A DNA stretch of 63,527 nt, the filler included, from Klebsormidium nitens (Eukaryota; Plantae; Klebsormidiophyceae): assembly GCA_000708835.1 (NCBI GenBank). It is 4 parts of 4 records of this genome, joined end to end, with 100 filler letters (N's around TTAATTAATTAA, not from the genome) between each part and the next. Parts side by side here need not be neighbours in the genome. Positions count along the whole stretch, not along the records: positions 54,360 to 60,307 come from DF238021.1; 3 more parts are not named here. One strand, 5' to 3'. The notes beneath the pieces are model-generated. The model was given only the letters and a program-made list of their open reading frames with translations, made no database searches and had not been told where the DNA came from. The position numbers were made by a program, and so were the translations under genes. Positions 1,742 through 63,527 of the stretch are shown here, in pieces. Every line of letters begins with the position of its first letter. Position 1 is the first letter of the stretch.

Positions 1742-2271
1742 AAACGGATGAGTTATTTGTCAATAAAGTTTGTCTTGGTGACAATTGTATTTTTGGGCGA
1801 GAAGTGCGGCCTCAGGGGAGCGAATCCTGACCGTCTTTGCCCCAAACCATCCATCCATCTAACGTTGGACATTTCACAGAACCGTGTGCCTGCCAGACCA
1901 TTCCTTCGGGAATAGCCTAAGGAATGCGGGCCTGCCACACGATCTGAGGGCGACCGTCTGCTCTTGTCGAAGTTTAAAGGCACCAAATTGCCCTGCAGAC
2001 TAAACCCCTAACCCCGGCCGACTGCCGCGGCCGCCTAAACCTCGCTGCCGGGATTTAGCGCGTTCGAATTCAAAGCAAACTTGCTGACGAGGCCTCGCCG
2101 CGTCTGAACTGCTGAGCAGAATCAGCTTGAAGTGCTGAACAAACCCCGAGTGTGATTCTTTCAAGTCTTCATTCCCAAATTACCTAAGCGCCAGCAGCGG
2201 CGCGTCTTGGCGCTGCTGATCAGGCGCCATTTCTTTCTTCCCGCCCACCTCCCTTGTCACACTCCAAGAAA

Positions 2272-2871
2272 NNNNNNNNNNNNNNNNNNNNNNNNNNNNN
2301 NNNNNNNNNNNNNNNNNNNNNNNNNNNNNNNNNNNNNNNNNNNNNNNNNNNNNNNNNNNNNNNNNNNNNNNNNNNNNNNNNNNNNNNNNNNNNNNNNNNN
2401 NNNNNNNNNNNNNNNNNNNNNNNNNNNNNNNNNNNNNNNNNNNNNNNNNNNNNNNNNNNNNNNNNNNNNNNNNNNNNNNNNNNNNNNNNNNNNNNNNNNN
2501 NNNNNNNNNNNNNNNNNNNNNNNNNNNNNNNNNNNNNNNNNNNNNNNNNNNNNNNNNNNNNNNNNNNNNNNNNNNNNNNNNNNNNNNNNNNNNNNNNNNN
2601 NNNNNNNNNNNNNNNNNNNNNNNNNNNNNNNNNNNNNNNNNNNNNNNNNNNNNNNNNNNNNNNNNNNNNNNNNNNNNNNNNNNNNNNNNNNNNNNNNNNN
2701 NNNNNNNNNNNNNNNNNNNNNNNNNNNNNNNNNNNNNNNNNNNNNNNNNNNNNNNNNNNNNNNNNNNNNNNNNNNNNNNNNNNNNNNNNNNNNNNNNNNN
2801 NNNNNNNNNNNNNNNNNNNNNNNNNNNNNNNNNNNNNNNNNNNNNNNNNNNNNNNNNNNNNNNNNNNNNNN
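2272..2871. other. Assembly gap (N run)
   Basis: Run of N. Confidence 0.99.
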
Positions 2872-3222
2872 AATAATTATTTATTTATTCGGAATCATAC
2901 CTTGGTAGTACGGTATACCGCCGCGCACGAAAAGTGACGGCCGCGCCCGGGCTGGTACCATCCGCTGCCATTCTGCGCCCGGTACCGTCCAAACAAAACT
3001 CTTCGCTGATACTGACAGCCCGGCCCAGGTGATCCAGGGCCCAGGCCGGCTGAGCCAATCCACAACAGAATTTTGCGCATGGTTTCCCTCAACATGCAAT
3101 CTTTAAAATTGTGGTGGAGAGATTGTTCATTGAGCTTGGTGGAGCTCGAAGCCTTGCAGCTTGGTTCGGAATGCACAGGACAACGTTATTTTGCCTGAAG
3201 AGTTTGTGGCAGACTTGGCAAC

Positions 3223-6200
3223 ATGGCGCTGATGACATCTTCGCTGGATATGTTTGTGGTGTGTGTTTTGTTTGGAGTGCGGGTCGAGTCCCGTCTGCTT
3301 AACGCAAATGGGACGGTGGATGCTGAGGAGATCTACACTGTTTGCACCGCCAACTTCCCTCCCTACGTGGCATGCATTGAGGGGGACTCGAGCCCCACAA
3401 ATTTTTCTGGTGAGCAACATGAGCCTGGACAGCCTGTCTTCGAGAGTCTTCGAAAAGAATAGCGAGTGGCTGTGTACACATCGTCAGCCATCAATTTGAG
3501 CAGCTGTAATCTGCATGCTGACTGGCAGCCAGACGTTAAGCGGAGACGGAGGGGCAATGCTGTGGAAAACAGTACGCTTTTGGGGTTAAATTCAAATGCT
3601 TCTGGGTTAGACCAATATTAGCAGATTCCTCACTGCGTCGTGGATGGCTATAAGCTCCACGATCTTAGCCCTTAGGTGTTCGTGCATTCAGTCGCTTAGG
3701 ATCGGCTGACCCTTCAATAATGGATCGACTGCCTGTGCGCGCAGTGTTATGAAGGTTCCACTAACAAATCATCATTTTGAGTCTGTTTACGACGACGCTT
3801 TTCCAATCAAGATCAAACCTGTGTCCAATGCTGCCCATTAGAATCACAGTAATATAACTACATGGCCATGATTGGTCAAATGCTGATCCGAAGCAGAGCC
3901 CACAAAGCTTGCAACTCAAATCGGTACCGGACAGTGCAAGCAGGGAGGAACGAGTCCAGCATTCACCTGAAAAAGGGGATTTGATCAAATCGCTACGTAT
4001 CTTATCGATGTTAAAAATCTTCAGAGCACCCATCTTCTTATAGAAAAAACTTCTGATATGGAAACAGTATCAAAGCAATTTGAGATAGGGCTTGAAACCT
4101 GCTTCTGATCTTCAATCTTGGCCACCACTGTAGTTTTGCAGCAATCATACTTGTCGTCCACCTCAGATATTCTATTGTCTCTACTATTTTCTAGGAATCT
4201 GCGCAAGTAAATCAATGCAACACTAACCAGCCACATTTGACCTGCTTATCATTGGCACCGCACGTGACTACAGGGAGCAAGAAGCTTACCCAAAGCTCTC
4301 ACATACCGGCATCTTGAAACACTAAAGAGAACTCTTGCAGTAAGTTTGAACCATGTTGTGCAGGCTATTCCACGGAAATGTTTAAGCGTGCGGCGAGCAA
4401 GCTAGGTTGGAAGGCCAAGAACTATCGGCTTCTTTGTCTTCCCTTCAATGACTTGGTCAATGACTTGACGGACCCCGATGGCACATGCGACATGGCGACA
4501 GCTGCCATGACGGTAGGCTATGGCTGTCAACATAGCTTATATCCCTTTGCAGCCTTGCATCCCCTTCTGTTCCTTCACGCCAATCTTGCAAACAAAGCCC
4601 TAGTCCCACAATAGAGTCTGCGTGGCTTTCTGAATCAAGACACTCAAAACAGCCCCTGCTTAATGTAACGTTTGAACAAGCAGTGGTTTGCTTGCAAGCA
4701 ATAATATAGTGGACCATCAAGGATGCATAAACATGGTTCTGCAACTTGACTATATGGCCGGCTGCAGAGAAAAGAGGGGAGGAGCAAAGACAGCTGTGAT
4801 GTAGAAAGGCTCTGGTATGCTACATCATGCTAGGCCTGCATTTGATAAGACTTTGCTAAATGTTGACTGCCTTCCTTATCCATTTCAAAATGCTCTGTGA
4901 TGTCCAGGTCCAACTTGAAAGTATTGAAAAAGGGATCCAGTTTGCATACCCAGACTACCACACAGGTCAGGGGCTGATGGTAAGGGGCTCTGGCTGTTTG
5001 GTGCAGATGTTTACTGGCTTATTGTGATTCTTGTCAAAAGGAAAGGTTTCCCTGATTTTCTGCTGCAAAACAGGAGAAATCTGCAACTTTACGAATTTGT
5101 GTCCCAGCACCCGCTCCTACGCAAAAGAATCGCCTTGAGAAAGATGCGATACAATTGGTCTGCGTAGCGCACGGCAGCTGAGTGTTGCCACCATGTTTCT
5201 GGCGCTGCCACAGGTTTATACCAGTGGGGTCAAGACCAACAGGTGGCTGTTCCTGAAACCTTTCAGCTGGGTAGTCTGGTTGTTCCTATTTCTCGCTGGT
5301 AAGCCCACAACCCAGACCTTGAGCTGCTGGGTTGTGGAACCTGAGGCAACTGGGAGACTGGCATTCTATGTATATATGCAATCTCTCTGCAAGACCAAGA
5401 AAACCATCCTGCTGCGGGGCATTCTGTTCGCTGGACAATCTCTCCAAAAAACGTGCGCGTCTCTACTGCGGCAGCGCTTGCGGTGGGGGTATCGGCACGT
5501 GTGGTGGAGATAATAGCAAAACCGAAGGCAGCAGAGCCATCAGAGGGCAAAGAAGACGAGAAAGCGGGCGTTGGAGAGCTTGTCTGGTCTGGTGAGTCTG
5601 ACTCTTCTTACCCAAACGATCCCAGCAGCGGAGTTGGTTAAACAAGCAGCCCAATACGATCTGAGTCAGATTCCTGGTAGACTCGTTACTGGACTCGCCC
5701 AGCCACGGTTTAGGCATAGGTGAAAAGCTGCCAGCTGATAAGCGGCCAGAGCACATGCCCCAGGACGACAAACACTTGGGTTCAGAACCATTCGTTTCCC
5801 AATTGACGTTCAAAAACATATGGCATGGGGGCATCCAGTAATGAGCCAATTCGGTGCGACATGGTATTGAGACGCTTCCAAGCTATTCTGACGTTGTCGA
5901 AAAAGTCGCTTCAATGCTCCTGCCACATGAGCAGTGCTAATTGCCAGTACTACGACAATATATACTGTTTGTGAGATGCCCTTTCTGCCGCTGCCTGCAG
6001 CGGGCGCGCAGATCGTGAATGCGGCCGAACCAATGCAAGCCTTCTCTATTCCGTCCCGGATCATCATCTTCGTTTGGGCGTTTCTCATCCTCCTATTAGT
6101 GGCGATGTACACCGGAAACGCCGCGGCAATCCTGACGGCTTCAGCGGTCGACGTCAGCATCCAGTGTGAGCATAAGAACCCGTTTGATGCTTTCAGAAGA

Positions 6201-9200
6201 GATGACTGCAAATTTGAAAAGGCTCGGTGGAGACTACTTGAGAACCAGTTGCTACGCCCAAGGAGTCGGGCTGATCTAGATGACAGATCCAGCGCTTTGC
6301 TGATCTTGACTCAGAGGGCAGCCTCAAGAGCGTCGGGAAGGGACAATTTAGATTTCAAGGTACGAAATGAATTGAGTACGATCTCAAGACCGGTCTTGAA
6401 ACGATCGAGGAATCAACTCGTAAGTAGGTAGGAGTGATGCGTCGAGGGCTTGGAACGCTATGGCATGACTCGGTAGGACGAAAAGCTCTGAAAATAGACC
6501 GTAGGTTGACGTTCCTCTTTTCAGCGTTTTAAAAACCCTGAACTTATTCTGTCGGTTTTGGTCCTCGAAAGCCTTGTTTCCACTGTAAGTCGTCCACGGA
6601 ATCCCTCTGATGGTGCTTCTTTGGACCGGAACAATGCGCTGATGCAGCGGCCGAATTTGCACCGCAAACGCTTGGCACTGTTTGGACATCCTCTTGTTAT
6701 CAAGGGAGAATTGCGCTAGCTGGTTAGCGGGTGTTTACATCGTTGTTCGACCAGCCTTTCTCGCGGTGAAAGGGCCTCTCAACGTGCCAGATCAGGCTTG
6801 GTTAGGTGGGAATCTTGGCGTGGTTCAGAAAAGATAGCCTGCTGGATCTATCTGAGATTGACGGGCGCTGGGGCTCTGATTGTCACTTGTGGATGCTGTC
6901 CTTGCTGTGCAGCTATTGACGATCTCCAGGGGAAGAACTGGGGAGCCTACCAATTCACGATTGAAATCATGCACCTTAACGGGTGGAACCCCACAGTTTT
7001 ATATGACCCGTGAGTGTGGGCGCGCTCCAACGATCGTCCGAGTCTTTGTCACGGAAAAAACCCTAGGTGACGTCACTTGATGCTAACATGCAGAGTGCAT
7101 GTGACGTTACCGCTTGTCGCAGCTAGAGCGCCTTCAATCCAGGAATCTGAATAGTGCTGTGACTCGTTTGATCGCATTTCCGTGAGTGGAGAGTCGGCAG
7201 AGCTCATCTTCTGAGTGTCATCTTCTAAGTGCTCTTGGTGGCACAACTTTACGTTATGTCCGTCGCTTCTGCCTTGACGAAAACCTCTGCTTTGCAATCC
7301 AAAAGAGTCACGGCTCTGGATGTGTCGGACATAGGGCTGTAAACGACCGCTTCTCAACGCCTCTTCTGGTGCAAAATGGTTTCTCTGTCAATTCAAGCCG
7401 CCGCTGGACAAGTACTTCGCTCGAGAGTTCCGCGCGTCGTCATGCCTGAACGCCACGTGTCACATCTGCAATCTGTGCAACAGGCAAACCGTGGCCGAGA
7501 CGGACCACATGCTCGACCAGCTGGAGAGCGGGGTCATTGAGGGGCTCGTCTGGGACTGTGGATTCGTGGATTACATAACGGCCACCCGGTGCAACTTTTA
7601 CAAGGTACGGTACACAGCACACTATGTCCCGTTCAAGCTTGCTTGGTTAACGGGCAATCAACCAGCAGTTACCACGTACTTTTGGTGAAACAATGGAACC
7701 AGCCACTTAAAGCAGATTTGCTCAACGGGGTGGTTTCGGATTCCGGCCTCCACCGAGTCTGAGCAAGTTTGGTAACATGCAGAACGTCCCCGTGAAATTG
7801 CAGCCTGACATTTGGGGCTGTGGTTCAGTGATAAGCGTGATGGGAGGTCTTGTGATTGGTCGGAATGGTGACGCCCCTATGCATCGGGGACTCTTCGATC
7901 CTTTCTTGCTCAATGATTACGTAGCTTTAACGTGCTCGATCCACAATTATCGTCGTACCAGAACATCTGCTTCTCGACGATTCCGGCCCGCTTCGGAATC
8001 TTTGCATTATTTGTACTGTTCGTCAATTCCAAGACAAGATGATTGACGTTGCATAAGGATAAGCGGTCCTCTGTAACTACTGGCGCAGCGTACTGTGACG
8101 GCCAACAAAAGCCTTCGACGAATCCCTAATGCTTTTTGAACTCAACAGATTTGGTCCTTACCGAGTGTTGGATAACAGACATTCGACGAGACATCAGCCA
8201 CCGTTCTTCAGAAGGGCGGCGCCACTAAGCGGTTTGCTAACTCGACACTTTCGCTCTCTCTTCTCCGCAGGTCGGAGACTGCATCACGGAGGACAACCGC
8301 GCGATGGCGTTCTGGCAGAACGCCACAGCGTCCTTGGTCAACGCGTTCTCCACTGCGGTCCTGCAGCTCGAAGCGAGCTCGGAGCTGTCGCACATCCACG
8401 AGGTGTTCATCAAGCCGACGTCGACGATCTGCGAAAGCGAGGCGGCCGGCGATCAGCAGCAGGTCACGTTCAACCAGGTGAGGATTAATGGTCGCAAAAG
8501 CGTGTCAAACAGGCGGACCGCAGAACCACGGAATGGCTGGGGGACGACCACGAATCGCAGCGCTGCGTTCACATTTTGACGTGAAATGATCGCTCTAGAT
8601 CTTTCGTTTGCATTTGGTTAGGCAAGGTTTGTCTGAACCCCAGTATCGGAACCAGTCCTGCCAAAGTGTGCGACCCCCTGGATAAACTTCGCAGACTGGA
8701 GTCCTTAGGGTGAATCGGACGGTGGCGCTGCGGTTTTGACCATCGCACAGTTCTGCGGTCCGCCTGTCAGAGACCGAGTTCACAACGTTTCCATTTTAGG
8801 GAAGGGCTCGAAAGGTAAAGAATCCAAGAGATAGCATTGGAGAGAAGTGCTCAACGTCGCGCATGAGAGATGATCAGCAGCTGACTGCAGGTGTCAATCG
8901 ACCAGCGTAAAAGCTTCGAAGTGTTGCGGTCGAGAAGTGACACACAAGGGTTTGTTATGGGCTTGCTTTCATGCGGAGATTAAAACCTCTAAACATAATG
9001 TGATAAGCGGTGCAAGCGAACGGCAGCCCACAGCCGGCACTTTGTACGTACAAAAAAAGAAGCGCTATGCTTACGAAATTTTCATTGAGAGATGGTTGCG
9101 AGCTTGCTGTGCGCAGAATTGAGAAGTCTGTGCAATCCTGCGTGATCCGGCCCAGTTCATTCCAAACGATGGCTTGCAATCCTGGACCATCCTGACGTAC

Positions 9201-26406: not shown

Positions 26407-28039
26407 TCATGTGGCAACTTGAGATGGACCGGGACATGCAACCCTTCTTTGGTCAGCTTTTTCAATGCACTTCCTCCCAAAATTGGTCATTGAATTATGC
26501 AAGGCTTGTTTACATTTGCCAATTGTGTCTGCTTTCTCTCTTCTCGCCGCGCTTTCTCTTCCCTCTAGAATCCAACAAAGAGTGGCCGCTTGAAGAAGGC
26601 TTCTCCTCCGACTCACCGGAGGGGACGTCGACCACCGCCTCCGAATCCGCATGGGCAACACAGTGAACGGTGGCCTTTCCCGCAAAGTGAGAGTCCATTG
26701 TGTCATAGAACTTGGACCGGTCGCCCCTATCGTGACCGGACTTAGCATTCTGAGCTTTGTCGAGTTGATAGTCCTTGAGCTCCTTGGCAAACCTCTTCCT
26801 GCAGGACTCGGCATTCTTGTTGAAGTCTGGACAGTTAGCTAGAACCTCGGTGGCCACCCTAGTCCACAAGTCAACGCCCTGCTTGGGCGCATCAAATTGA
26901 GCTTGCATCAAGGCTCGTTGCTCGATGAGCTGATGAATCCACTCGTCCTTCCAAAGGCGGCTTTGAGCTTCCTGCAGAAGCTCCGGATCAATGGCTGGTG
27001 CTTTGTCTGTCTTCTTCTTGGTCGCTGGGGTCTTTGTGCTCTTGCTGCCCGCAGGGCGGCCACGCTTCTTTGTGGTTGGTGCATCCACAGCTTCTGCACA
27101 TGGAAGGCAAAGGATATAAAGCTTGGGGCGTGCAGCTTGCTATGGAGGCCCCATGATTTACGAGTGCCCAAGTCTGGACTTAACCTGAAAAAGGGCAGCC
27201 CGTCCAATAACCTCCTTGGACACCCATTGCATGGAAGTTATTGAAGCTGGCCAAGACCGAGTGCTTGTAAGCAGAACCACTTCGAACGGAGACCCTTCTG
27301 AACAACAGCAATCCTTTCAGGCTTTCTGCACATCCCACATCAGAAGCCTGACACGTGCCTAAGATTGGATTTCTTTGAAGGAGAAACACATCCAGAAAGG
27401 ATCCCCAATGGAATAAAGCGCTCATTTACAACCAGGGGAATCCTTTTGAGCCTGTTTGGACGTCCAACATTAAAAGCCTGATAGCTGCCTCTGGGCATTA
27501 TTGAACACACAACATAGGTACATTCCGAGCTGCTCGTAACATGTCTCCTTTAGGAGACAAGTGATGGAAGACCATTGACCAGGTTGGTCAACAGGACTTG
27601 AATGATGCAGGAAGAAGAAGCGTGCAAATCAGCGAGCACACCCGCCCAAGAACAATGCTTGCTGGCAGCTATACATACCTGGTGTAGCCGTCATCGGTGG
27701 TTGTCCCCCAGGCATTGATGAGGCTTGCACGTGAGGAAGGCCTCCCTGCTCGTACCGCGGAGCATCCGGCCCTGGATTAGCAAATGCAGCGTTTGGAGGA
27801 CCCTGTGGCTGATGCTGGATATTGTGAATGGGACGTTCCCAGTAGCCGTCGCCTTGGTTAGTGGGGTCATACTGCTGTGTTTCAAGGGAATCATATCCAG
27901 GCGCATTCTGCTGCTGCTGAGATATGGTGCTGCCTGGAGCTGGGTGCTGCGTTGGCATACTGTCTGTTGGCAGCGCAAGGTTGCCAAGAAAGCCCCGGTC
28001 AGGCCGGAAGGTGCTTGCTTCGCCCTGGCGCCCCTCCAT
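26407..28039 (-). CDS. AT-hook + Myb/SANT-like (trihelix-type) DNA-binding protein, multi-exon
   Basis: Exon about 26510-27097 encodes KKRGRP (AT-hook) then W-spaced helices LWKDEWIHQLI...LWTRVA...SCRKRFAKELKDY...SKFYDTMDSHF. An upstream Q/P-rich exon lies at 27629-28039. Exact 3' end uncertain. Confidence 0.7.
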
Positions 28040-54259: not shown

Positions 54260-54359
54260 NNNNNNNNNNNNNNNNNNNNNNNNNNNNNNNNNNNNNNNNN
54301 NNNTTAATTAATTAANNNNNNNNNNNNNNNNNNNNNNNNNNNNNNNNNNNNNNNNNNNN
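54260..54359. other. Artificial contig linker (N-TTAATTAATTAA-N)
   Basis: TTAATTAATTAA at 54304-54315 within a 100-nt N block. Confidence 0.95.
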
Positions 54360-54363
54360 CCTC

Positions 54364-54419
54364 GACCCACCAAGCCTGACCCACCAAGCCTGACCCACCA
54401 AGCCTGACCCACCGAGCCT
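54364..54419 (+). repeat. 14-bp tandem repeat x4
   Basis: GACCCACCAAGCCT at 54364, 54378, 54392 and 54406 (last copy has one mismatch). Confidence 0.95.
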
Positions 54420-54485
54420 AAAATCCTAAAACCCTAAATTCTGAAAACCCTATAATCCTATTACCCTAAAACCCTACCCTAAAAA
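54417..54485 (+). repeat. Degenerate telomere-like tract (CCCTAAAA / CCCTAAA variants)
   Basis: cctaaaatcctaaaaccctaaattctgaaaaccctataatcctattaccctaaaaccctaccctaaaaa, the C-rich strand of TTTTAGGG/TTTAGGG-type repeats. Confidence 0.65.
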
Positions 54486-54778: not shown

Positions 54779-55309
54779 ATGAATAGAGAACAGGCAACCG
54801 AGTTGCTCTCGAAGTTCGATTCCACTACGAAACTCTTCTCTCTCGCAGGGCTAAAGACATATTGCCGACCGGTGTCTTTACATGATTTGGTCACTATTTC
54901 GGTAGTGTTTCCATTCCAAGGCCGGGATGTCCATAAGATAAATTGTAGGGTCCTAGGCCTGGATAGCGCGGAATCGACGTCCAAAAACCCGATCGTGAAG
55001 GCTTGGGCCGTGAAGGCGCGCAACCGCATGCTCTCGCTCATCGCTCCCGGCGTCTTCGAGGTCGACGGTAGTTACTCGAAGAAGGACATCGAGAGGTTGC
55101 TCGCGGAGAACGTCAGCATGCTCTACATACACGCTTACGAGTACGAGAAGTTCGGGCGTCTGCTGGTCGACCTATTTCTCGACGACTCTGCGTCCGACAG
55201 GGGTGAGACCTTGCAGGCGATCTGTATCCGGGAGAATTACGCGAAACCGTATCACGGGAAGATGAAGAGCCAGTGGGTACCGGAAGACTGCCGTCTCAAC
55301 GTTTCCTAA
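54779..55309 (+). CDS. Thermonuclease (staphylococcal nuclease-like) copy A, 176 aa
   Basis: Motifs HDLVT (DxDT with D to V), RVLGLDSAE, EKFGRLL and YAKPYHG. The true start is probably ATG 54779. Confidence 0.85.
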   Translation: MNREQATELLSKFDSTTKLFSLAGLKTYCRPVSLHDLVTISVVFPFQGRDVHKINCRVLGLDSAESTSKNPIVKAWAVKARNRMLSLIAPGVFEVDGSYSKKDIERLLAENVSMLYIHAYEYEKFGRLLVDLFLDDSASDRGETLQAICIRENYAKPYHGKMKSQWVPEDCRLNVS

Positions 55310-55557
55310 GGAGACTGCAGACCGAATCGGATGGTCGGGGGAGGGATCGAGGAGTCCAGCGGGATGGGTACGATCGTAGAGAACCTCTGGGGAGGATCGG
55401 GGGCGGTGCAGAGGGGCTTCCTCGATGTGGCGCCCTGAGAGGAACTGGGCGTGCAAATGAGGTCGAAATGTCGGCGGGAGCACGCGTAGCCCCGCTCAGC
55501 CCCGAACCCGTCGGTCACGTAGAGCATGATGCTCTCATTCGCGGGGAGTCCGTACGA
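55306..55557 (-). pseudogene. 3' fragment of the expansin-like gene (duplicate of 59750-60000)
   Basis: Near-identical to 59750-60000 (SYGLPANESIMLYVTDGFG...FGLQSP*). Ends at a 20-N gap. Confidence 0.75.
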
Positions 55558-55583
55558 NNNNNNNNNNNNNNNNNNNNGATAGG

Positions 55584-56100
55584 ATGAATAGAGAAGAGGC
55601 AACCGAGTTGCTCTCGAAGTTCGATTTTACTACGAAACTCTTCTCTCTCGCAGGGCTAAAGACATATTGCCGACTGGTGTCTTTACATGATCTGGACACT
55701 ATTTCGGTAGTGTTTCCATTCCAAGGCCGGGATGTCCATAAGATCAATTGTAGGGTCCTAGGCCTGGATAGCGCGGAATTGACGTCCAAAAACCCGATCG
55801 TGAAGGCTTGGGCCGTGAAGGCGCGCAACCGCATGCTCTCGCTCATCGCTCCAGGCGTCTTCGATTTCGACGGGAATTACGCGAAGAAGGACATCGAGAG
55901 ATTGCTCGCGGAGAACGTCAGCATGCTCTACATACACGCTTACGAGTACGAGAAGTTCGGGCGTCTGCTGGTCGACCTATTTCTCGACGACTCTGCGTCC
56001 GACAGGGGTGAGACCTTGCAGGCGATCTGTATCCGGGAGGGTTACGCCAAACCCGTATGACGGGAAGACGAAGAGCCATTGGGTACCGGAAGACTGCCGT
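55584..56100 (+). pseudogene. Thermonuclease copy B with a +1 frameshift near the C-terminus
   Basis: Near-identical to copy A, HDLDT intact. An extra C in AAACCCGTATGA gives an early stop at 56058-56060. Confidence 0.8.
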
Positions 56101-56126
56101 NNNNNNNNNNNNNNNNNNNNGATAGG

Positions 56127-56600
56127 ATGAATAGAGAACAGGCCACCGAGTTACTCTCGAAGTTCGATTCCACTACGAAACTCTTTTCTCTCGAAGGGCT
56201 GAAGACATATTGCAGACTGGTGTCTTTACATGATCTGGACACTATTTCGGTAGTGTTTCCATTCTAAGGCCGGGATGTCCATAAGATCAATTGTAGGGTC
56301 CTAGGCCTGGATAGCGCGGAACTGACGTCCAAAAACCCGATCGTGAAGGCTTGGGCCGTGAAGGCGCGTAACCGCATGCTCTCGCTCATCGCTCCAGGCG
56401 TCTTCGAGGTCGACGGTAGTTACGCAAAGAAGGACATCGAGAGGTTGCTCGCGGAGAACGTCAGCATGCTCTACATACACGCCTACGAGTACGAGAAGTT
56501 CGGGCGTCTGCTGGTCGACCTATTTCTCGACGATCCTGCGTCCGACAGGGGTGAGACCTTGCAGGCGATCTGTATCCGGGAGGGTTACGCCAAACCATGA
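56127..56600 (+). pseudogene. Thermonuclease copy C: premature stop and 3' truncation
   Basis: CAA to TAA at 56265-56267. Similarity ends at YAKP (about 56596-56600), and the missing tail reappears at 59695-59753. Confidence 0.8.
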
Positions 56601-56874
56601 TAAATAGCGGAGATATGGAGACCGTGGAAGCGGCGATGCGATTGCGAGCCCTCGTTGAGCAGAACGGGGCGGGCAAGGAAGCGCCGGCACCCTGACGACC
56701 TTTTCAAAAACTAATACCAAAGATGGGCGAACGAATAGCTACTCACGCCAACCTGGACCCTTGCGCGAGACGGGCCATATGGAATCGTTTGAATGCATTT
56801 GTGTGATCGGCCGGGCGATTGTATGCATCAGAGTCTATGCGGTTCACTTTATTTTCTCGAGCACTGGACACGAC

Positions 56875-57393
56875 ATGGATAAGGAGCAAGCTGCACAGCT
56901 TCTCTCCAAATACGATGACTCGACAAAGCTGTTCTCTTTGGATGGATTGAAGACTTACGCGCGGGTTGTCGCTATGCATGACCTTGATACTTGTACGGTC
57001 GTATTTCCGTTTCAAAACAACGACGTTCACAAGATCATCGTGCGGCTACTCGGTATCGACTCGCCGGAAATGAATGCGAAACACCCCACGGTAAAAGATT
57101 GGGCCGTGAAAGCGCGCAACCGTATGCTTTCTCTCGTGGCACCAGGGGTATTTGAGATAGATGGAAACTATACGAGGAAAGATATCAACAAGCTTTTCAG
57201 AGAGAATGTGGCGTTGATCTGGATGGATGCGAAGGGTTGGGATAAGTACGGGAGGTGTCTTGGAGATATCTACCTCTCCCCTGACGATACAAAGTCTCTG
57301 CAAACCATCTGCATCGAACAAGGCTATGCAAAAGTCTACGATGGGGGCACTAAGAATCAGTGGGTGCCAGAAGACTGCGTCCTGAGATCGTAA
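56875..57393 (+). CDS. Thermonuclease copy D, diverged and intact, 172 aa
   Basis: Motifs HDLDT, VRLLGIDSPE, DKYGRCL and YAKVYDGGTK. Intact SNase catalytic motifs, clearly diverged from copies A-C. Confidence 0.88.
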   Translation: MDKEQAAQLLSKYDDSTKLFSLDGLKTYARVVAMHDLDTCTVVFPFQNNDVHKIIVRLLGIDSPEMNAKHPTVKDWAVKARNRMLSLVAPGVFEIDGNYTRKDINKLFRENVALIWMDAKGWDKYGRCLGDIYLSPDDTKSLQTICIEQGYAKVYDGGTKNQWVPEDCVLRS

Positions 57394-57434: not shown

Positions 57435-57921
57435 TTATACGACATGCTTGTGCATTCGACGCAATTCTACCCTCCTCAAATGAGCTTTCGAGACATTGTA
57501 CTTCACGGCTCGCTGAGCATGCGTAAGCCCGTCTTTTCCAAACGTAGCTCGAATCTTCCGGACCTGATCCTCCGTCAGCTTTGCAAAACCACATCTCCCA
57601 TGACGTAACATATCAATTGCATTCTCGCTGCACGTCCCTATCTCTAGATGCTCTGGTGCACAGCAGGCGCGATTCCCACAGAGATGCCGGACAACCTTCC
57701 CGATCTTCTGACCGACCTCGACTGGTCCCCCCTGCTTGATCTCGTAAGAGAGAATGTGCGTCAAGCGGCTCCTTCCGAAGACGCTTATCGTACCGTATCC
57801 ATCATTGATCTTTGTTCCCATCCAAATTCGGCATGAGGTACCCCCGTAGGAGCTAGTCCCGTCGACTCTCATCTTGCTCTCCAACCGCTGCCGAGCCTGC
57901 TTGTACATGTCGCCCGTCCAG
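57435..57921 (-). CDS. HNH / His-Cys box homing endonuclease module + HTH (C-terminal part of a split gene)
   Basis: CRIWMG...GYGTI...THILSY...VRHLCGNRACCAPEHLEIGTCSEN followed by AKLTEDQVRKIR (HTH). The ORF track extends this frame to 58490. Confidence 0.85.
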
Positions 57922-58209
57922 TCCATCATTTGATCGGAACGGCGGTCGCATCCGGCAGCAACGACCACAAACAATGGAGCCATATCTGGATATTCATCTG
58001 TGCGCCGATTGTAGGGGGTATACTCGCGGGCCTCAACCCGCTCTGGATCGATCGGACGCCCGAGCCTGATCACGTTCCCGCGCCGGCGCCGGCACTGACC
58101 GCCTGAGTGATTGCCTCGCCATCGCGCCTGCAGGGTAGCACAAGTAATCATCAGTCCAATGCGTCCTATCATTCTTGCATTTTTCCAGCTGTATACAGTA
58201 TTGTTGCCT

Positions 58210-58482
58210 ATGGACGAGCGACGATTCTTCATCGACTTGTGCGCATTCATAATCCGATACATGCATACGAACGACTTGTCTGGAAACCTTGATGACTTCA
58301 TGATTAGACTATCCAGATTGAGGGACTGGTATGTTTCGTTGGCGCCTGAACTCGCAGAAAGCATCGCATCAGACGAGAATCTACAGAGAAGTTGTATGGG
58401 GTATGAATTTTTTTTGAAAGAGATCTGTGTGCACGATATCTCACCTTCCCCTTCATTGGCTTTCAAGAGTAGCGACCACTGA
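58210..58482 (+). CDS. Small hypothetical protein, 90 aa
   Basis: MDERRFFIDLCAF...; amphipathic-helix composition. Antisense to the upstream half of the 57435-58490 frame, so one of the two is likely a shadow. Confidence 0.35.
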   Translation: MDERRFFIDLCAFIIRYMHTNDLSGNLDDFMIRLSRLRDWYVSLAPELAESIASDENLQRSCMGYEFFLKEICVHDISPSPSLAFKSSDH

Positions 58483-58662
58483 AATTGCATGTACAGATGT
58501 GTCCTTTATCAGTTGCTGAAGCTTGGATGACTTCACACCTTGCAAGCGTTCCCCTGGAGTATTAACGATTTTGTATTCGAAAGGCAGTTCGTTCCACTGT
58601 TGCAAGGCACGCTCATCGGATGCAGAAACTAAGAAAGTCGAGCTGCCAGACGTGATATTCAT
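58453..58662 (-). CDS. Small hypothetical protein, 69 aa
   Basis: ATG in AAAATG context after an AT-rich stretch; intronless. Confidence 0.4.
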   Translation of the reverse strand: MNITSGSSTFLVSASDERALQQWNELPFEYKIVNTPGERLQGVKSSKLQQLIKDTSVHAISVVATLESQ

Positions 58663-58784: not shown

Positions 58785-59594
58785 TCCAGACCCGGGCCTT
58801 CGCGCGAGCCAGCCGCGCTCTTGTCTTGTCTAGACTCAGCATTCCCCACTATCGATTTTGTAAACGATCTTCACATGTACTCCAAAACGCTTCGCGCGCT
58901 CAATTGCAGTCTCGTGGCCCGCTTGACCCCTCCTCGTCGTGGGCTTCGAGTCCTTGATTCGACGGGCGAGTTCTTCCGATATACTGGCATTGTGATTCTT
59001 CGGACCCCTCGGCAGTGTCCCGTTAGCGATCTTGTCGTCATAATTGTTCTCCCGCAGAGTACCGTATGCTAGATGAGTCGGTTCGAAACAGCGCGAGTCG
59101 TTGCACAGGTGTCGCAATACGAGCGGCACTCCGTTCTCGTCTTGCTCCGTGGGACTTTCCACCAGGCTCTTGTGAAGCATATAGGACGCTTTGTGGATCC
59201 CCATCATCACACCACGGAGACTGACTTTTTCATACGCTTTCTCGGCGACCAGGCACCCGTTGCCGAGCCGCACCCCACGCTTCTCCAGTCTCGCCCAGAT
59301 GATCGCGGACGACTTCTCCTCTTTCAGAGGCATTCTCCGGAGATGCTCGACTTTGACGCACTTGTTGTTCTCACAGATCACCTTGCATTTATGAAACTTG
59401 TCTAGGGGCTCATCCGGATGATTGAAGCCCCAGAGAAAGCGCCGCACGTTGGTCTGCTGCATTTTTTTATTCACACTCTTCCTCAAGGTGCGGTAACCAT
59501 TCACATCCAACCGTCCCAACCATGGAAGACACCCGTTCGCATCGGCAGACCCTGTCTTCGCCCTGATTGCTTCCACGACCTCATGCTCATCCAT
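58785..59594 (-). CDS. Double HNH-type module + HTH (N-terminal part of a split homing endonuclease gene)
   Basis: GCLPWLG...GY...CENNKCVKVEHL (degenerate first module), then RHLCNDSRCFEPTHLAYGTLREN and an HTH (ASISEELARRIK...RAKRFGV). Main frame stops at 58836; a shifted frame continues DKTRARLARAKARVW. Confidence 0.85.
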
Positions 59595-59749
59595 GTTGGC
59601 TGCTCTACATGCAAAATCGCCTCTCCCTAAATGGGGTCTCGAACCTGGGTCCTGCTTCTGAGATAGAAGCTAAACAGCAGTGTGTAACGCAGAAATCACG
59701 GGAAGACGAAGAGCCAGTGGGTACCGGAAGACTGCCTTCTCAACGTTTC

Positions 59750-60307
59750 CTAAGGAGACTGCAGACCGAATCGGATGGTCGGGGGAGGGATCGAGGAGTC
59801 CAGCGGGATGGGTACGATCGTAGAGAACCTCTGGGGAGGATCGGGGGCGGTGCAGAGGGGCTTCCTCGATGTGGCGCCCTGAGAGGAACTGGGCGTGCAA
59901 ATGAGGTCGAAATCTCGGCGGGAGCACGCGTAGCCCCGCTCAGCCCCGAACCCGTCGGTCACGTAGAGCACGATGCTCTCATTCGCGGGGAGTCCGTACG
60001 ACTGAAACATTCCGGCGTAGGTGTGCTCCAAATGCATCCAGCCCTGGTCGGAGGCGACCTTCACCCCCATGACGTTGCCCGCTTCGCCTCCTAGCGGCGC
60101 GAAGTCTATGATGGAGAAGAGCCCTTGATCGATTAGGTCCAGAGAAGCGTCTCCGCCGCCGGTCGTCGGGCACCGGGTCCTCGTGAGGCTCCCTTCGGAC
60201 GTCGACGGGGCGCTCGAGTATCGCTCCGCCAGAGCGATGGAGCCTTTGGGGCAATCCTCGCAGCTGCCGGCGACGTATGCGAGCCGCGGTCCCGCGCCCT
60301 TGCTGCT
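59750..60307 (-). CDS. Expansin-like (EXLX-type) protein, 5'-truncated by gap, with P-rich tail
   Basis: The frame is open from the gap: ...LAYVAGSCEDCPKGSIALAE...RCPTTGGG...NVMGVKVASDQGWMHLEHTYAGMFQSYG...IVLYVTDGFG. This resembles the DPBB end plus CBM63 domain of expansin-like proteins. Its stop overlaps the SNase stop. Confidence 0.55.
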   Translation of the reverse strand, partial: SSKGAGPRLAYVAGSCEDCPKGSIALAERYSSAPSTSEGSLTRTRCPTTGGGDASLDLIDQGLFSIIDFAPLGGEAGNVMGVKVASDQGWMHLEHTYAGMFQSYGLPANESIVLYVTDGFGAERGYACSRRDFDLICTPSSSQGATSRKPLCTAPDPPQRFSTIVPIPLDSSIPPPTIRFGLQSP

Positions 60308-60407
60308 NNNNNNNNNNNNNNNNNNNNNNNNNNNNNNNNNNNNNNNNNNNNTTAATTAATTAANNNNNNNNNNNNNNNNNNNNNNNNNNNNNNNNNNNNN
60401 NNNNNNN
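60308..60407. other. Artificial contig linker (N-TTAATTAATTAA-N)
   Basis: TTAATTAATTAA at 60352-60363 within a 100-nt N block. Confidence 0.95.
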
Positions 60408-60652: not shown

Positions 60653-63527
60653 CAGTCCCGCCCCCATCCACGGTCGCTTGGGCACCCGCTCGCAAGCCCG
60701 GCAAGCCCGCGCTGTGCACGGGGCGCTCTCCGTCACCAAGTCGACCAGAGCCTATACGTTCTTTGGGAGGCCCGCCCGCATTGCCAGGAACTCGTCTGGA
60801 GTGAGGGGTGCATTGCTACAGCCCTTCGGTGCCTTTCTAAAGTTGCACCACCGCATGGCGGCCGCACGCACCGCCGGCGTGATGTCCGATAGGCCGTTGC
60901 GGTACTTCCACTCGCAGTCGATGAGCTCCCTTGGAGCATCAGATGGCCACAGCCCTCCAACGCTCAGCGGTGTAAAGCCACCCCCCACGGTGGGGGCCCC
61001 CGGCCCTGGCTCTGTTATGCTGTGGAGCCCACTCTCCTTGGCGTCTCGCATGGCGCTCGCGTTGGGGAAGAAGGTTCCATCGAACGTGATCACCTTGTCC
61101 GGGCCAAAAGCATAGGTCTCCAGCTGGTCCGCATCCCCCTCCGTCCGCTCCCGTGCGAGAGGCGTGCCTCCTTCTCGAGCAGCCGCCTCGGCTGCTAGCA
61201 CCTCCGAAGTGTACAAGTGCGAACAATCCGGCCGCTTGCACGCATGCTGAATGGGCCTGGCCGCCAGGTCGTTGAAGGCCCTCATGGCGGAGTCAAAGAC
61301 CCTATCATCCAGGCGGGGCGCTCCGGGCCCGTCCAAGCTGGCCGCAGCCATATCGTTTGCGTCGAAGCCCAGGGTGTGCGAGGCGCCCAGGGCGGCCGCA
61401 AAGTGATTTCGCAACAGCAGGCCGTGGGAGATCAGGTTGGTGCCAGAGAAGTTGAAGATCCCATCCTCCTGAATGAGCGGCGCGTACGAGCGTCAGCAAA
61501 GTTTCCGCATTAGAATGCACACGAGATGAGCAAAGCCCATGAGGAAGAACGTGAGCAAAATGACCACTTCGCCCAGGTGCTAGCCATTGTCAGCTCAAAG
61601 AGACTGCTCAACATTCAAGACACCGCCTCCGCTATCGCAACATGCACCGACGCGAGAGACCGTGTGCAGCCTCTGCTGGTAGACTCGCCAATCTCGTTGA
61701 CCCCCGGACCATTGCAGATGCTATGCGACGCCCCATCCCAGCTGTGCTCCGTCTGTTCCAGGAAAGAAACGCGACTGCGTTGCCCGCTACAGCCACACGC
61801 GGGCAGAGCGGTATGCGAACGCTGCTGGGAACATGATCATTGGAAAGAACTCGAATTTCTCTCGTGGAGAGAGGCACGCGATATTTATAAAGTGACCAAT
61901 GAAGGTTTGAAGACGCTGCAATGGGCCCAGTCGCCTCATCGCTGGAATCAACGCTACTTCAGAGAGCTTGACGTCAGGTCGCTGGCAATCCAAGAGGCGG
62001 GCGGCGTGGCAGCATTTCAAGTCAGACGAGACAAGGTTCGATCGAATGCCCGCGCGCGAAGGCTCGCAAATCTGGTGCGGCGCTACGATGACCTGTCAGC
62101 CCTCGGAATGGATATCGAAAGACAAGTCTACCTCGCGGGCCTGCTCATCAGGGACTGCATCAATCTACAGGTCCCGAATGGGAGCCGTCTGCTTGACGAA
62201 GTGATACATGCTGCAGCGAGCACTCAGAATCAATCGGACGACGGAAATCTTTCCAGTCATCTGGACTGGATAGCCCCCCTCCATTCCCTAAAGCGCTACA
62301 CAGACTTCAAAAAGGGCACCACGCAGCCTTGAAGTTTTCCCCTTATTTGTGCCCGCAGCTGATGGCGAGCCGTCGGATGTCCTCGCCTTCCAGTTCACCC
62401 CTCTTTTTTGCCGACACAATCATGGCCTTGAGCTCAGCCTTAAGCACTCGAGTAGCTTTTGCCTTTGTCTTCATGTTGGCCTTGCGCTCCTCCATCGCTG
62501 CGTTGGCCCTGCCTATGTAGGGCCTTTCCTCCGCCAGGATGGCAAATTGCGCCTCGACATGGCGACGGTCTGTCCTTATAGGCGGGCGCCGCGCGCCCCT
62601 CTTTGCAAATGCTATTGCTGCAGCGTCCTTTTCAGCTCTGGTCACTCTCGCAGCAGCAATGGCGCAGTTGACATGCATGTTTTTGCGCGCTTGCCCGCCA
62701 CCGGACCTAGCCTCTTCAATGGACTCCGTCATCAATGTACGTTCATCGACGGAAATCATAAACTGGCCTGAACGCGCCCTCACCTGCCCATCGTATGCCA
62801 GGCTGCAGCATGCAGCCACTCTACCCGGCTGCATCGCACACACCCTCCGATGTACGGTCACCGGATAGCGAGCCCCCGCCATGGTCAGCATACCCTTGCG
62901 ACTCTCCATCACCCACCGCCTCCCGCATGGCGCTGCATCCTGCAACGGCCTCGGCCCGCAGAAATGCTTGGCAGCATCGCGCTGTGCCACGCCGCTGTCC
63001 CCCCACCGTTCGCAGGAGTCGACCACCGCCCGTCCCCCGCGGCTCATGACTGTGTCAATTGCCTTGTGCGAGTGGCCCATGTCCAACGCTGCTGCCGGCG
63101 GACAGAGCCACTCCTCGCGAACGTGCGCGCAAGGGCCCGCAAAATCCAAAGAGCGGCAGGTCGGATCGTTGCACACCGTCAGCCGCTCTCCTGACTCCCG
63201 GAGCGCCTCCAACACTTCGAGTTTATCTCTGCGCTGGGAGGCTCCTCGAGCCGGCGGGGGCACAGCACCTCGCCTCACAGAGACACTCCCAGCTTCGACT
63301 ACCAGCTGCAGATGCGAGCAGAGGCTCTGCTCATGGCTAGCCACCTTGCACCGGTCGCAGTGAGGCCGCCCGCCCATTCCCAAGCTGCACACCGCGTCGC
63401 CGTCTGGCTCTGTCCCAACGACTGCAAAGACTCTGAGCCGAGCCCCCCGCCATGCCTGGGCATTGAGCCCCTTCAACCTCGGCCCGAGCATGCCATTCCG
63501 ATCGATCGGAATGATGCCCGCGCCATC
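60653..63527 (-). mobile_element. KDZ (Kyakuja-Dileera-Zisupton)-type transposase with CxC cysteine cluster; in-frame stop; extends beyond window
   Basis: SWIM-like CxxC...CxH motifs, then APCGRRW...VTVHRRVC...CCSLAYDGQ, an intron (61469-62783), then EDGIFNFSGTNLISHGLLL and VITFDGT. A TAG at 60752-60754 is followed by in-frame ALVDLV up to a donor at 60652. Confidence 0.72.
61526..62332 (+). CDS. F-box-like / XPA C-terminal-like Zn-binding protein, 268 aa, nested antisense in the transposase intron
   Basis: CSVC...CERC zinc pair then LSWREARDIYKV...LKTL...PH...YFRELDVRSLAIQEAGG, like the XPA C-terminal domain. N-terminal LLNIQDTASAIATC is weakly F-box-like. Confidence 0.6.
   Translation: MSKAHEEEREQNDHFAQVLAIVSSKRLLNIQDTASAIATCTDARDRVQPLLVDSPISLTPGPLQMLCDAPSQLCSVCSRKETRLRCPLQPHAGRAVCERCWEHDHWKELEFLSWREARDIYKVTNEGLKTLQWAQSPHRWNQRYFRELDVRSLAIQEAGGVAAFQVRRDKVRSNARARRLANLVRRYDDLSALGMDIERQVYLAGLLIRDCINLQVPNGSRLLDEVIHAAASTQNQSDDGNLSSHLDWIAPLHSLKRYTDFKKGTTQP

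Follow-up and report, generated by a model that had tools for sequence, protein, structure and literature searches.

A divergent family with a predicted expansin fold in a likely virus-derived island of the Klebsormidium nitens genome

The expansin-like gene and its neighborhood

The window, by which we mean the whole 63,527-nucleotide stretch of Klebsormidium nitens DNA that was analyzed, carries between about 54490 and 60307 an island that holds four thermonuclease (SNase) frames along with two of HNH type and two incomplete expansin-like copies. Its features are the following:

54417..54476 (+): repeat of CCCTAAAA type, degenerate (7.5 copies, 71% matches), bordering the island on the left
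54779..57393 (+): four genes of SNase type, one an intact paralogue and the other three about 95% alike
55306..55557 (-): second copy of the expansin-like 3' end, cut by a 20-N gap and lying tail-to-tail with a whole SNase frame
56875-57393 (+): the intact SNase paralogue (PF00565, E 1e-10)
57435-58505 and 58836-59669 (-): HNH / His-Me homing-endonuclease-type frames (PF13392, PF05551)
59695..59753 (+): final codons of an SNase (thermonuclease) gene, the stop overlapping the expansin-like stop by 2 bases
59750..60307 (-): 3' two-thirds of the expansin-like gene, 185 codons and a TAG stop
59753..59932 (-): extension peculiar to the family (residues 126-185), with a hairpin, predicted to have two strands, followed by a Pro-rich tail
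59933..60172 (-): linker Cys46 and predicted domain 2 (CBM63 / Expansin_C-like), residues 46-125
60173..60307 (-): C-terminal half of predicted domain 1 (DPBB), residues 1-45, with the CxxC retained
60308..60407: 100-base gap (N 60308-60351, a 12-base linker, N 60364-60407) hiding the 5' part of the expansin-like gene

Because the expansin-like frame enters the gap at 60307, its missing start is an artefact of that gap. In this frame an ATG first occurs at residue 80 (position 60070), and translation of 59750-60307 (-) bears out the statement of an earlier note on this DNA that 79 open codons precede it; measured against the relative P0003, about 87 N-terminal codons are absent. Every motif on which the same note had based its reading of a DPBB end followed by a CBM63-like domain is located in the protein, namely YVAGSCEDCPKGSIAL (residues 11-26), CPTTGG (46-51), VKVASDQGWMHL (82-93) and YVTDGFG (115-121). 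Toward the 5' end, whose recovery the note had proposed, contigs of the runs X1, X2, X3 and X5 extend beyond the gap edge at 60308; the runs X7 and X8 contributed nothing. In the X1, X2 and X3 contigs the first letters past the gap, read by eye, give the residues that precede the stretch in the relative P0002, these three runs being one sample, possibly the source of the window, and thus not independent of it. Run X5, dated 2025 and labelled with a different organism, contains an ungapped copy at 92% identity that reaches about 265 bases further.

The comparison with the X5 copy reveals 36 differences, and 15 of the 31 that are listed are synonymous (dN/dS 0.33, P 0.004); under the conservative assumption that the five unlisted differences are all replacements, the ratio is 0.44 (P 0.02). 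When all six frames are compared, the expansin-like frame is the richest in synonymous changes and the sole one in which no stop is involved, and its GC3 is 0.80, the two remaining codon positions having 0.58 and 0.57. The gene is real and under purifying selection. An opposite-strand frame at 59567-60094 (175 codons) was rejected, with five synonymous versus 21 replaced codons.

The second expansin-like copy, which the earlier note had missed, is 98.7% identical to the first over 55251-55557. Each of the three similar SNase copies is altered: one has a changed conserved Asp, one ends early and one has an internal stop, the last two as would be expected of a decaying insert. These near-identical copies (54779-56603) are separated by 20-N gaps and could be decaying tandem copies or several loci assembled as one. 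At 59750 the SNase partner is reduced to its last codons with an HNH gene before them, and the X5 contig bridges the same arrangement. Each HNH frame apparently consists of two HNH-like units that are 28% alike. The second of these frames adjoins the shortened thermonuclease, as though inserted there, and has no relative that we could find in the viral contigs.

A family with a predicted expansin fold

Nine other records of the family were found. The near relatives are P0002 and P0004 (199 residues, 98-99.5% identical, P0002 at 99.5%), P0005 (106 residues) and P0006 (91%); farther removed are P0003 (270 residues, 58%), P0009-P0011 (272, 53%) and P0007 (270, 43%). The 231 extra N-terminal residues of P0006 are taken to be an over-long call, all other full-length members beginning after them, and a repeat protein (P0008) with 38 matching residues was dropped as a chance match among 1.84 billion representatives. 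Full-length relatives have 270-272 residues and start about 87 residues ahead of the window's first codon. In them a 19-residue hydrophobic stretch lies within residues 4-30 (mean hydropathy 1.55-1.77, predicted helix), and only in them is the N-terminal half of domain 1 visible. Six cysteines have aligned counterparts in the myxobacterial and viral comparators, three in the window's part and three in the gap, and the CxDC loop of the family includes a conserved Asp. Domain 2 retains Phe64, Phe69, Tyr97, Phe101 and Trp90 (Arg in P0007 for the last). The hairpin of the extension has a conserved Cys pair (128, 137) with a pLDDT of about 80, and residues 126-185 have no match to the expansin comparators in profile comparison.

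Standard searches do not bring this family together with the expansins. None of the ten family proteins scanned reaches the curated cut-off of Pfam PF03330 or PF01357, the best being P0007 to Expansin_C at E 0.093; searches of the PDB with phmmer and with the profile give no expansin match; and the 1.84 billion representatives return three family members and P0008 with no expansin; a plasmid search likewise gives no expansin. Two other readings were discarded: the CxxCH in CGTCH as a c-type cytochrome site (Cytochrome_C7, E 0.17), this column being that of the expansin CGxC, and Xp10_P7 (E 0.19), the match to which spans only 26 residues.

The relationship emerges when profiles are compared. 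Expansins were gathered from genomes by a motif and a profile search (122 loci, 20 motif-bearing frames), and ten diverse ones were aligned (A5) after exclusion of near-duplicates and of one short non-expansin frame. Nine of these ten match DPBB_1 and six Expansin_C, and the A5 profile retrieves EXLX1, EXPB1 and other expansins from the PDB. Against A5 the family profile scores a probability of 92.2 (E 5.9e-7) over 151 columns spanning both domains, compared with 0.1 for an unrelated control profile. The match beats column shuffles in 60 of 60 cases for the whole protein (48.0 versus a maximum of 28.6), for domain 1 (33.8 versus 19.0) and for domain 2 (28.2 versus 24.9); with 27 expansins the same test yields 45.0 versus a maximum of 22.7, and reversed controls score 26.9 and 31.3 against 45-48 for the real match. 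The window's part alone matches the expansins weakly (probability 26 and 11). Identity to the comparators, a set that is without plant expansin sequences, is 11-17%.

The ESM Atlas points in the same direction. For P0003, six of the seven rows listed are expansin/DPBB clusters (top 0.91, 201 of 256 features), and for the window protein such a cluster ranks first at 0.89, a lead on the tool's scale. Among the structure rows of the window protein nine of ten are expansin/DPBB clusters, with TM 0.44-0.58 by query and, where a lone Expansin_C domain matches residues 47-140, 0.72; all rows are below the bar for naming a family.

Structure prediction, one of the checks that the earlier note had suggested, divides according to the alignment supplied. 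From the 8-row family alignment AlphaFold gives a poor and uninformative model (pLDDT 41) with no Foldseek match at E 0.001 and a best VIA Z of 4.1. With 25 expansins and six family rows the pLDDT is 66, 12 matches are obtained at E 0.001 or better, and all 11 of those listed are expansins; this agreement is partly circular, since 25 of the 31 alignment rows are expansins, and it counts as consistency only. In a viral structure library the assisted model has no match at E 0.001, with weak RlpA-like rows only. The plant proteins EXPB1 (2hcz), Phl p 1 (1n10) and GhEXLA1 (7xc8) are among its fold neighbors (E 7e-7, 1e-5 and 3e-4), whereas searches of the PDB recover no sequence-level match between plant expansins and the family. 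GhEXLA1 ranks below the other expansins, and to our knowledge plant EXLA and EXLB proteins are without the HFD motif. On the profile comparison with its shuffles, the ESM Atlas and the partly circular assisted model, the expansin-like fold claimed in the earlier note is supported, and we predict with high confidence that the family adopts the two-domain expansin fold, DPBB followed by CBM63.

The loosening residues

Like EXLX1 (Bacillus subtilis YoaJ, 2bh0/3d30; Clavibacter, 4jcw), the family has a DPBB domain followed by CBM63 in a collinear alignment, and it shares with the myxobacterial expansins the cysteine pattern C...CGxC...CxxC...linker C. It differs from both in the replacement of Asp82, Asp71 and Thr12, in having Trp125/Trp126 out of register, in an extra 60-residue C-terminal part and in an identity of just 11-17%. 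Residue numbers here are those of BsEXLX1, read off the alignment. All 25 comparators carry Asp in the Asp82 column, where the six family rows carry Ala or Thr; the window has Ala25, opposite the LDLS Asp as the earlier note had stated, and P0006, which lies outside that alignment, also has Ala at this position. At Asp71, 21 of 25 comparators have Asp and all six family rows Gly (Gly14 in the window), and in the Thr12 column, where the alignment is less sure, the three full-length rows all have Arg. In the W125 and W126 columns the family has Thr/Ile and Ile/Val, with a conserved Phe two columns either side, and a conserved Tyr lies one column off Tyr157 while Phe160 is retained, the register in both regions being uncertain at 15% identity.

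As presented in the relevant part of one review, Asp82 is required for expansin activity: D82A and D82N abolish that of BsEXLX1, the D82A mutant is inactive in two bacterial expansins, and Thr14, Asp71 and Tyr73 also matter (PMC5072189). The aromatic triad of domain 2 is described as W125, W126 and Y157 in passages of two reviews (PMC5072189, PMC10095946). Since the residues needed for loosening according to reviews (Asp82 and Asp71) are replaced family-wide, the earlier note's claim of a wall-loosening gene is not supported. Nor is the loss of the acids a decay of the window copy, since it extends through the family to members as distant as 43%. With non-aromatic W125/W126 columns and the Tyr one column off, tight binding of crystalline cellulose is not predicted. 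The family likely resembles the binding scaffold of the expansins, yet by its residues would fall outside the active ones. One bacterial expansin carries Leu at position 82 according to the same review, so that activity may not depend on the Asp (PMC5072189).

Our literature search, which did not extend to subscription journals, found no paper on an acid-less viral expansin, and viruses go unmentioned in the available portions of two expansin surveys (10.1101/637728, PMC11547041). The novelty of a viral expansin with an entry role, as suggested in the earlier note, is overstated: section 3.4 of a 2017 study of Klebsormidium flaccidum describes two expansin genes in NCLDV-like contigs and proposes a wall-crossing role for them (Gallot-Lavallee and Blanc 2017, PMC5294986). 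As in that account, the gene studied here is of expansin type and lies within a stretch, here a likely virus-derived one, of an algal genome. The published genes are described there as plant-like, with VLTF3 and a phycodnavirus hypothetical gene as neighbors, whereas the gene in the window is flanked by a thermonuclease and has no recognizable plant match among the 1.84 billion representatives. Because of this description it probably differs from the published genes. The new element here is a divergent variant without the acid; that algal inserts carry viral expansins was already known from that section (PMC5294986).

Other viral proteins carry related domains. A 259 kb AT-rich viral contig (L122; IMGVR_UViG_3300022752_003151) encodes a canonical two-domain expansin (2589-3287, -) adjoining a putative glycoside hydrolase frame (3685-4590, +). 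This expansin resembles the family in being on a viral contig and in its two domains, CGxC and linker Cys; it differs in retaining the TxY, VTD and LDL acids and in its AT-rich genome, and is 14% identical to P0003. On a 412 kb viral contig (L154), a secreted His-first LPMO-like domain is fused to a DPBB-like domain (1875-3227, +) 8 kb from a thermonuclease. This lone domain apart, the 80 viral loci around SNase relatives have no expansin-family match. Bacterial expansin patterns gave no match in the viral contigs, and the family itself is absent from the metagenome contigs scanned, scans of this kind requiring exact short patterns. The second feature neighbor of P0003 in the ESM Atlas (0.91) is a cluster of 53 members, all from viruses, whose 279-residue proteins match no Pfam family and which may be a wider group of unrecognized viral expansin-like proteins.

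Origin and possible role

The earlier note had called the island virus-like, and its thermonuclease genes make this likely. The intact SNase is 41-44% identical to viral-contig proteins and 31-34% to those of phages and plasmids, in a comparison confined to viral contigs, phages and plasmids, and 44 of its best 80 viral matches bear GVMAG names, which we take to denote giant-virus bins. The island genes are intron-free and close-packed with overlapping stops, and the best SNase relatives found outside the family are on giant-virus contigs. The pair of expansin-like gene and SNase apparently recurs in at least five of the nine other records (10895, 13524, 25687, 49089 and 78655 bases), as judged from equal source and record size rather than from the DNA, with members listed for ten of 27 SNase clusters. 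No capsid, packaging ATPase, polymerase or VLTF3 is found among the Pfam-scanned frames of the island, which is only 6 kb long and cut by gaps; the 100-base gaps at 54260-54359 and 60308-60407 bound it, and no host-DNA junction lies inside one contig. A viral origin of the expansin-like gene is likely, while neither this origin nor integration is proven, given the lack of a hallmark gene and the gaps on both sides.

Further features of the window bear on its setting. The CCCTAAAA repeat is the reverse complement of the TTTTAGGG telomere unit, and the insert may accordingly lie where a chromosome ends or once ended, given this adjoining telomere-type repeat. Beside the repeat, at 54364-54419, there is a tandem repeat of 14 bases. 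The telomere unit is reported, in the relevant part of the source, from Klebsormidiophyceae and from some of the Chlamydomonadales (PMC3622300); a green-algal host would suit this occurrence. Host-type genes elsewhere in the window include a ligand-gated ion channel exon (5931-6428, +) and a Myb/SANT-like domain (26513-27139, -). The region 60752-63527 (-) holds frames that are rich in GC, free of introns and marked by clusters of Cys; they match no Pfam family and may resemble CxC/KDZ transposons.

The reading that we tentatively favor is that of a likely giant-virus gene in a likely decaying algal insert, whose product, with a predicted expansin fold devoid of Asp82, likely binds the wall and does not loosen it. 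The most likely role, as far as the conserved residues allow a prediction, is that of a surface glycan-contact protein, its binding being predicted just as its absence of loosening is. The hydrophobic N-terminal stretch, seen only in the relatives, would export or anchor the protein; the conserved cysteines would hold the fold outside the cell; and the conserved aromatics of domain 2 would contact a wall glycan. The virus might then use this predicted wall binder for attachment, or as a coat of the virion or infected cell, rather than for creep.

That the protein is instead, in line with the earlier note, a viral expansin still able to loosen the wall of the alga during entry or exit, with some other residue in place of Asp82, seems rather unlikely. 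Both domains are retained under purifying selection, the Asp of the CxDC loop is conserved, the same idea was put forward for other viral expansins in the section cited above (PMC5294986), and the review leaves room in its discussion for expansins without Asp82 (PMC5072189); against this stand the replacement of Asp82 and Asp71 in all family rows, the Arg in the Thr12 column of the three full-length ones and the inactivity of D82A in the two bacterial expansins of that review (PMC5072189), while the retention of both Asp residues by the expansin of L122 indicates that viruses keep them elsewhere. We likewise regard as unlikely a loss of glycan contact with reuse of the fold as a protein-binding scaffold, a decoy or inhibitor comparable to kiwellin and the Streptomyces papain inhibitor. 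Such a reuse would accommodate the changes on domain 1 (its polar surface) and domain 2 (its Trp pair), as well as the family-specific Cys-paired hairpin and tail, and DPBB proteins of the kiwellin/papain-inhibitor type do appear as weak fold neighbors of the assisted model (ranks 13, 14 and 25); but aromatics of exposed type are conserved in domain 2 (Phe64, Phe69, Tyr97, Phe101), the two domains in expansin order better suit a glycan surface, and no binding partner is suggested by the analyses.

It is improbable, too, that the gene is the alga's own, or part of a non-viral mobile element made up of a nuclease and homing endonucleases, and merely lies near virus-like DNA. In its favor, the window is without a hallmark virus gene, the family is absent from the viral contigs scanned (these scans requiring exact short patterns), and the Atlas neighbors of the window protein are mainly streptophyte clusters. 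However, the frame is intron-free, its stop overlaps that of a giant-virus-like SNase, it apparently shares its contig with such an SNase in at least five of nine other records, and the taxa of Atlas clusters do not show origin, as the tool itself warns.

The finding of a conserved, virus-linked expansin without the loosening acid bears on how large DNA viruses reach the cells of cellulose-walled streptophyte algae, and offers a candidate attachment protein along with a natural test of what the fold does when Asp82 is missing. The case further indicates that Pfam and BLAST overlook part of the viral expansin range. We put forward as a more doubtful, wider proposal that a giant-virus lineage of terrestrial or freshwater green algae might have reshaped an expansin for wall attachment without loosening, in a constant pairing with a thermonuclease, and furnished it with its own Cys-paired hairpin and tail; if true, the protein would be a candidate for receptor binding in viruses known solely from their inserts.
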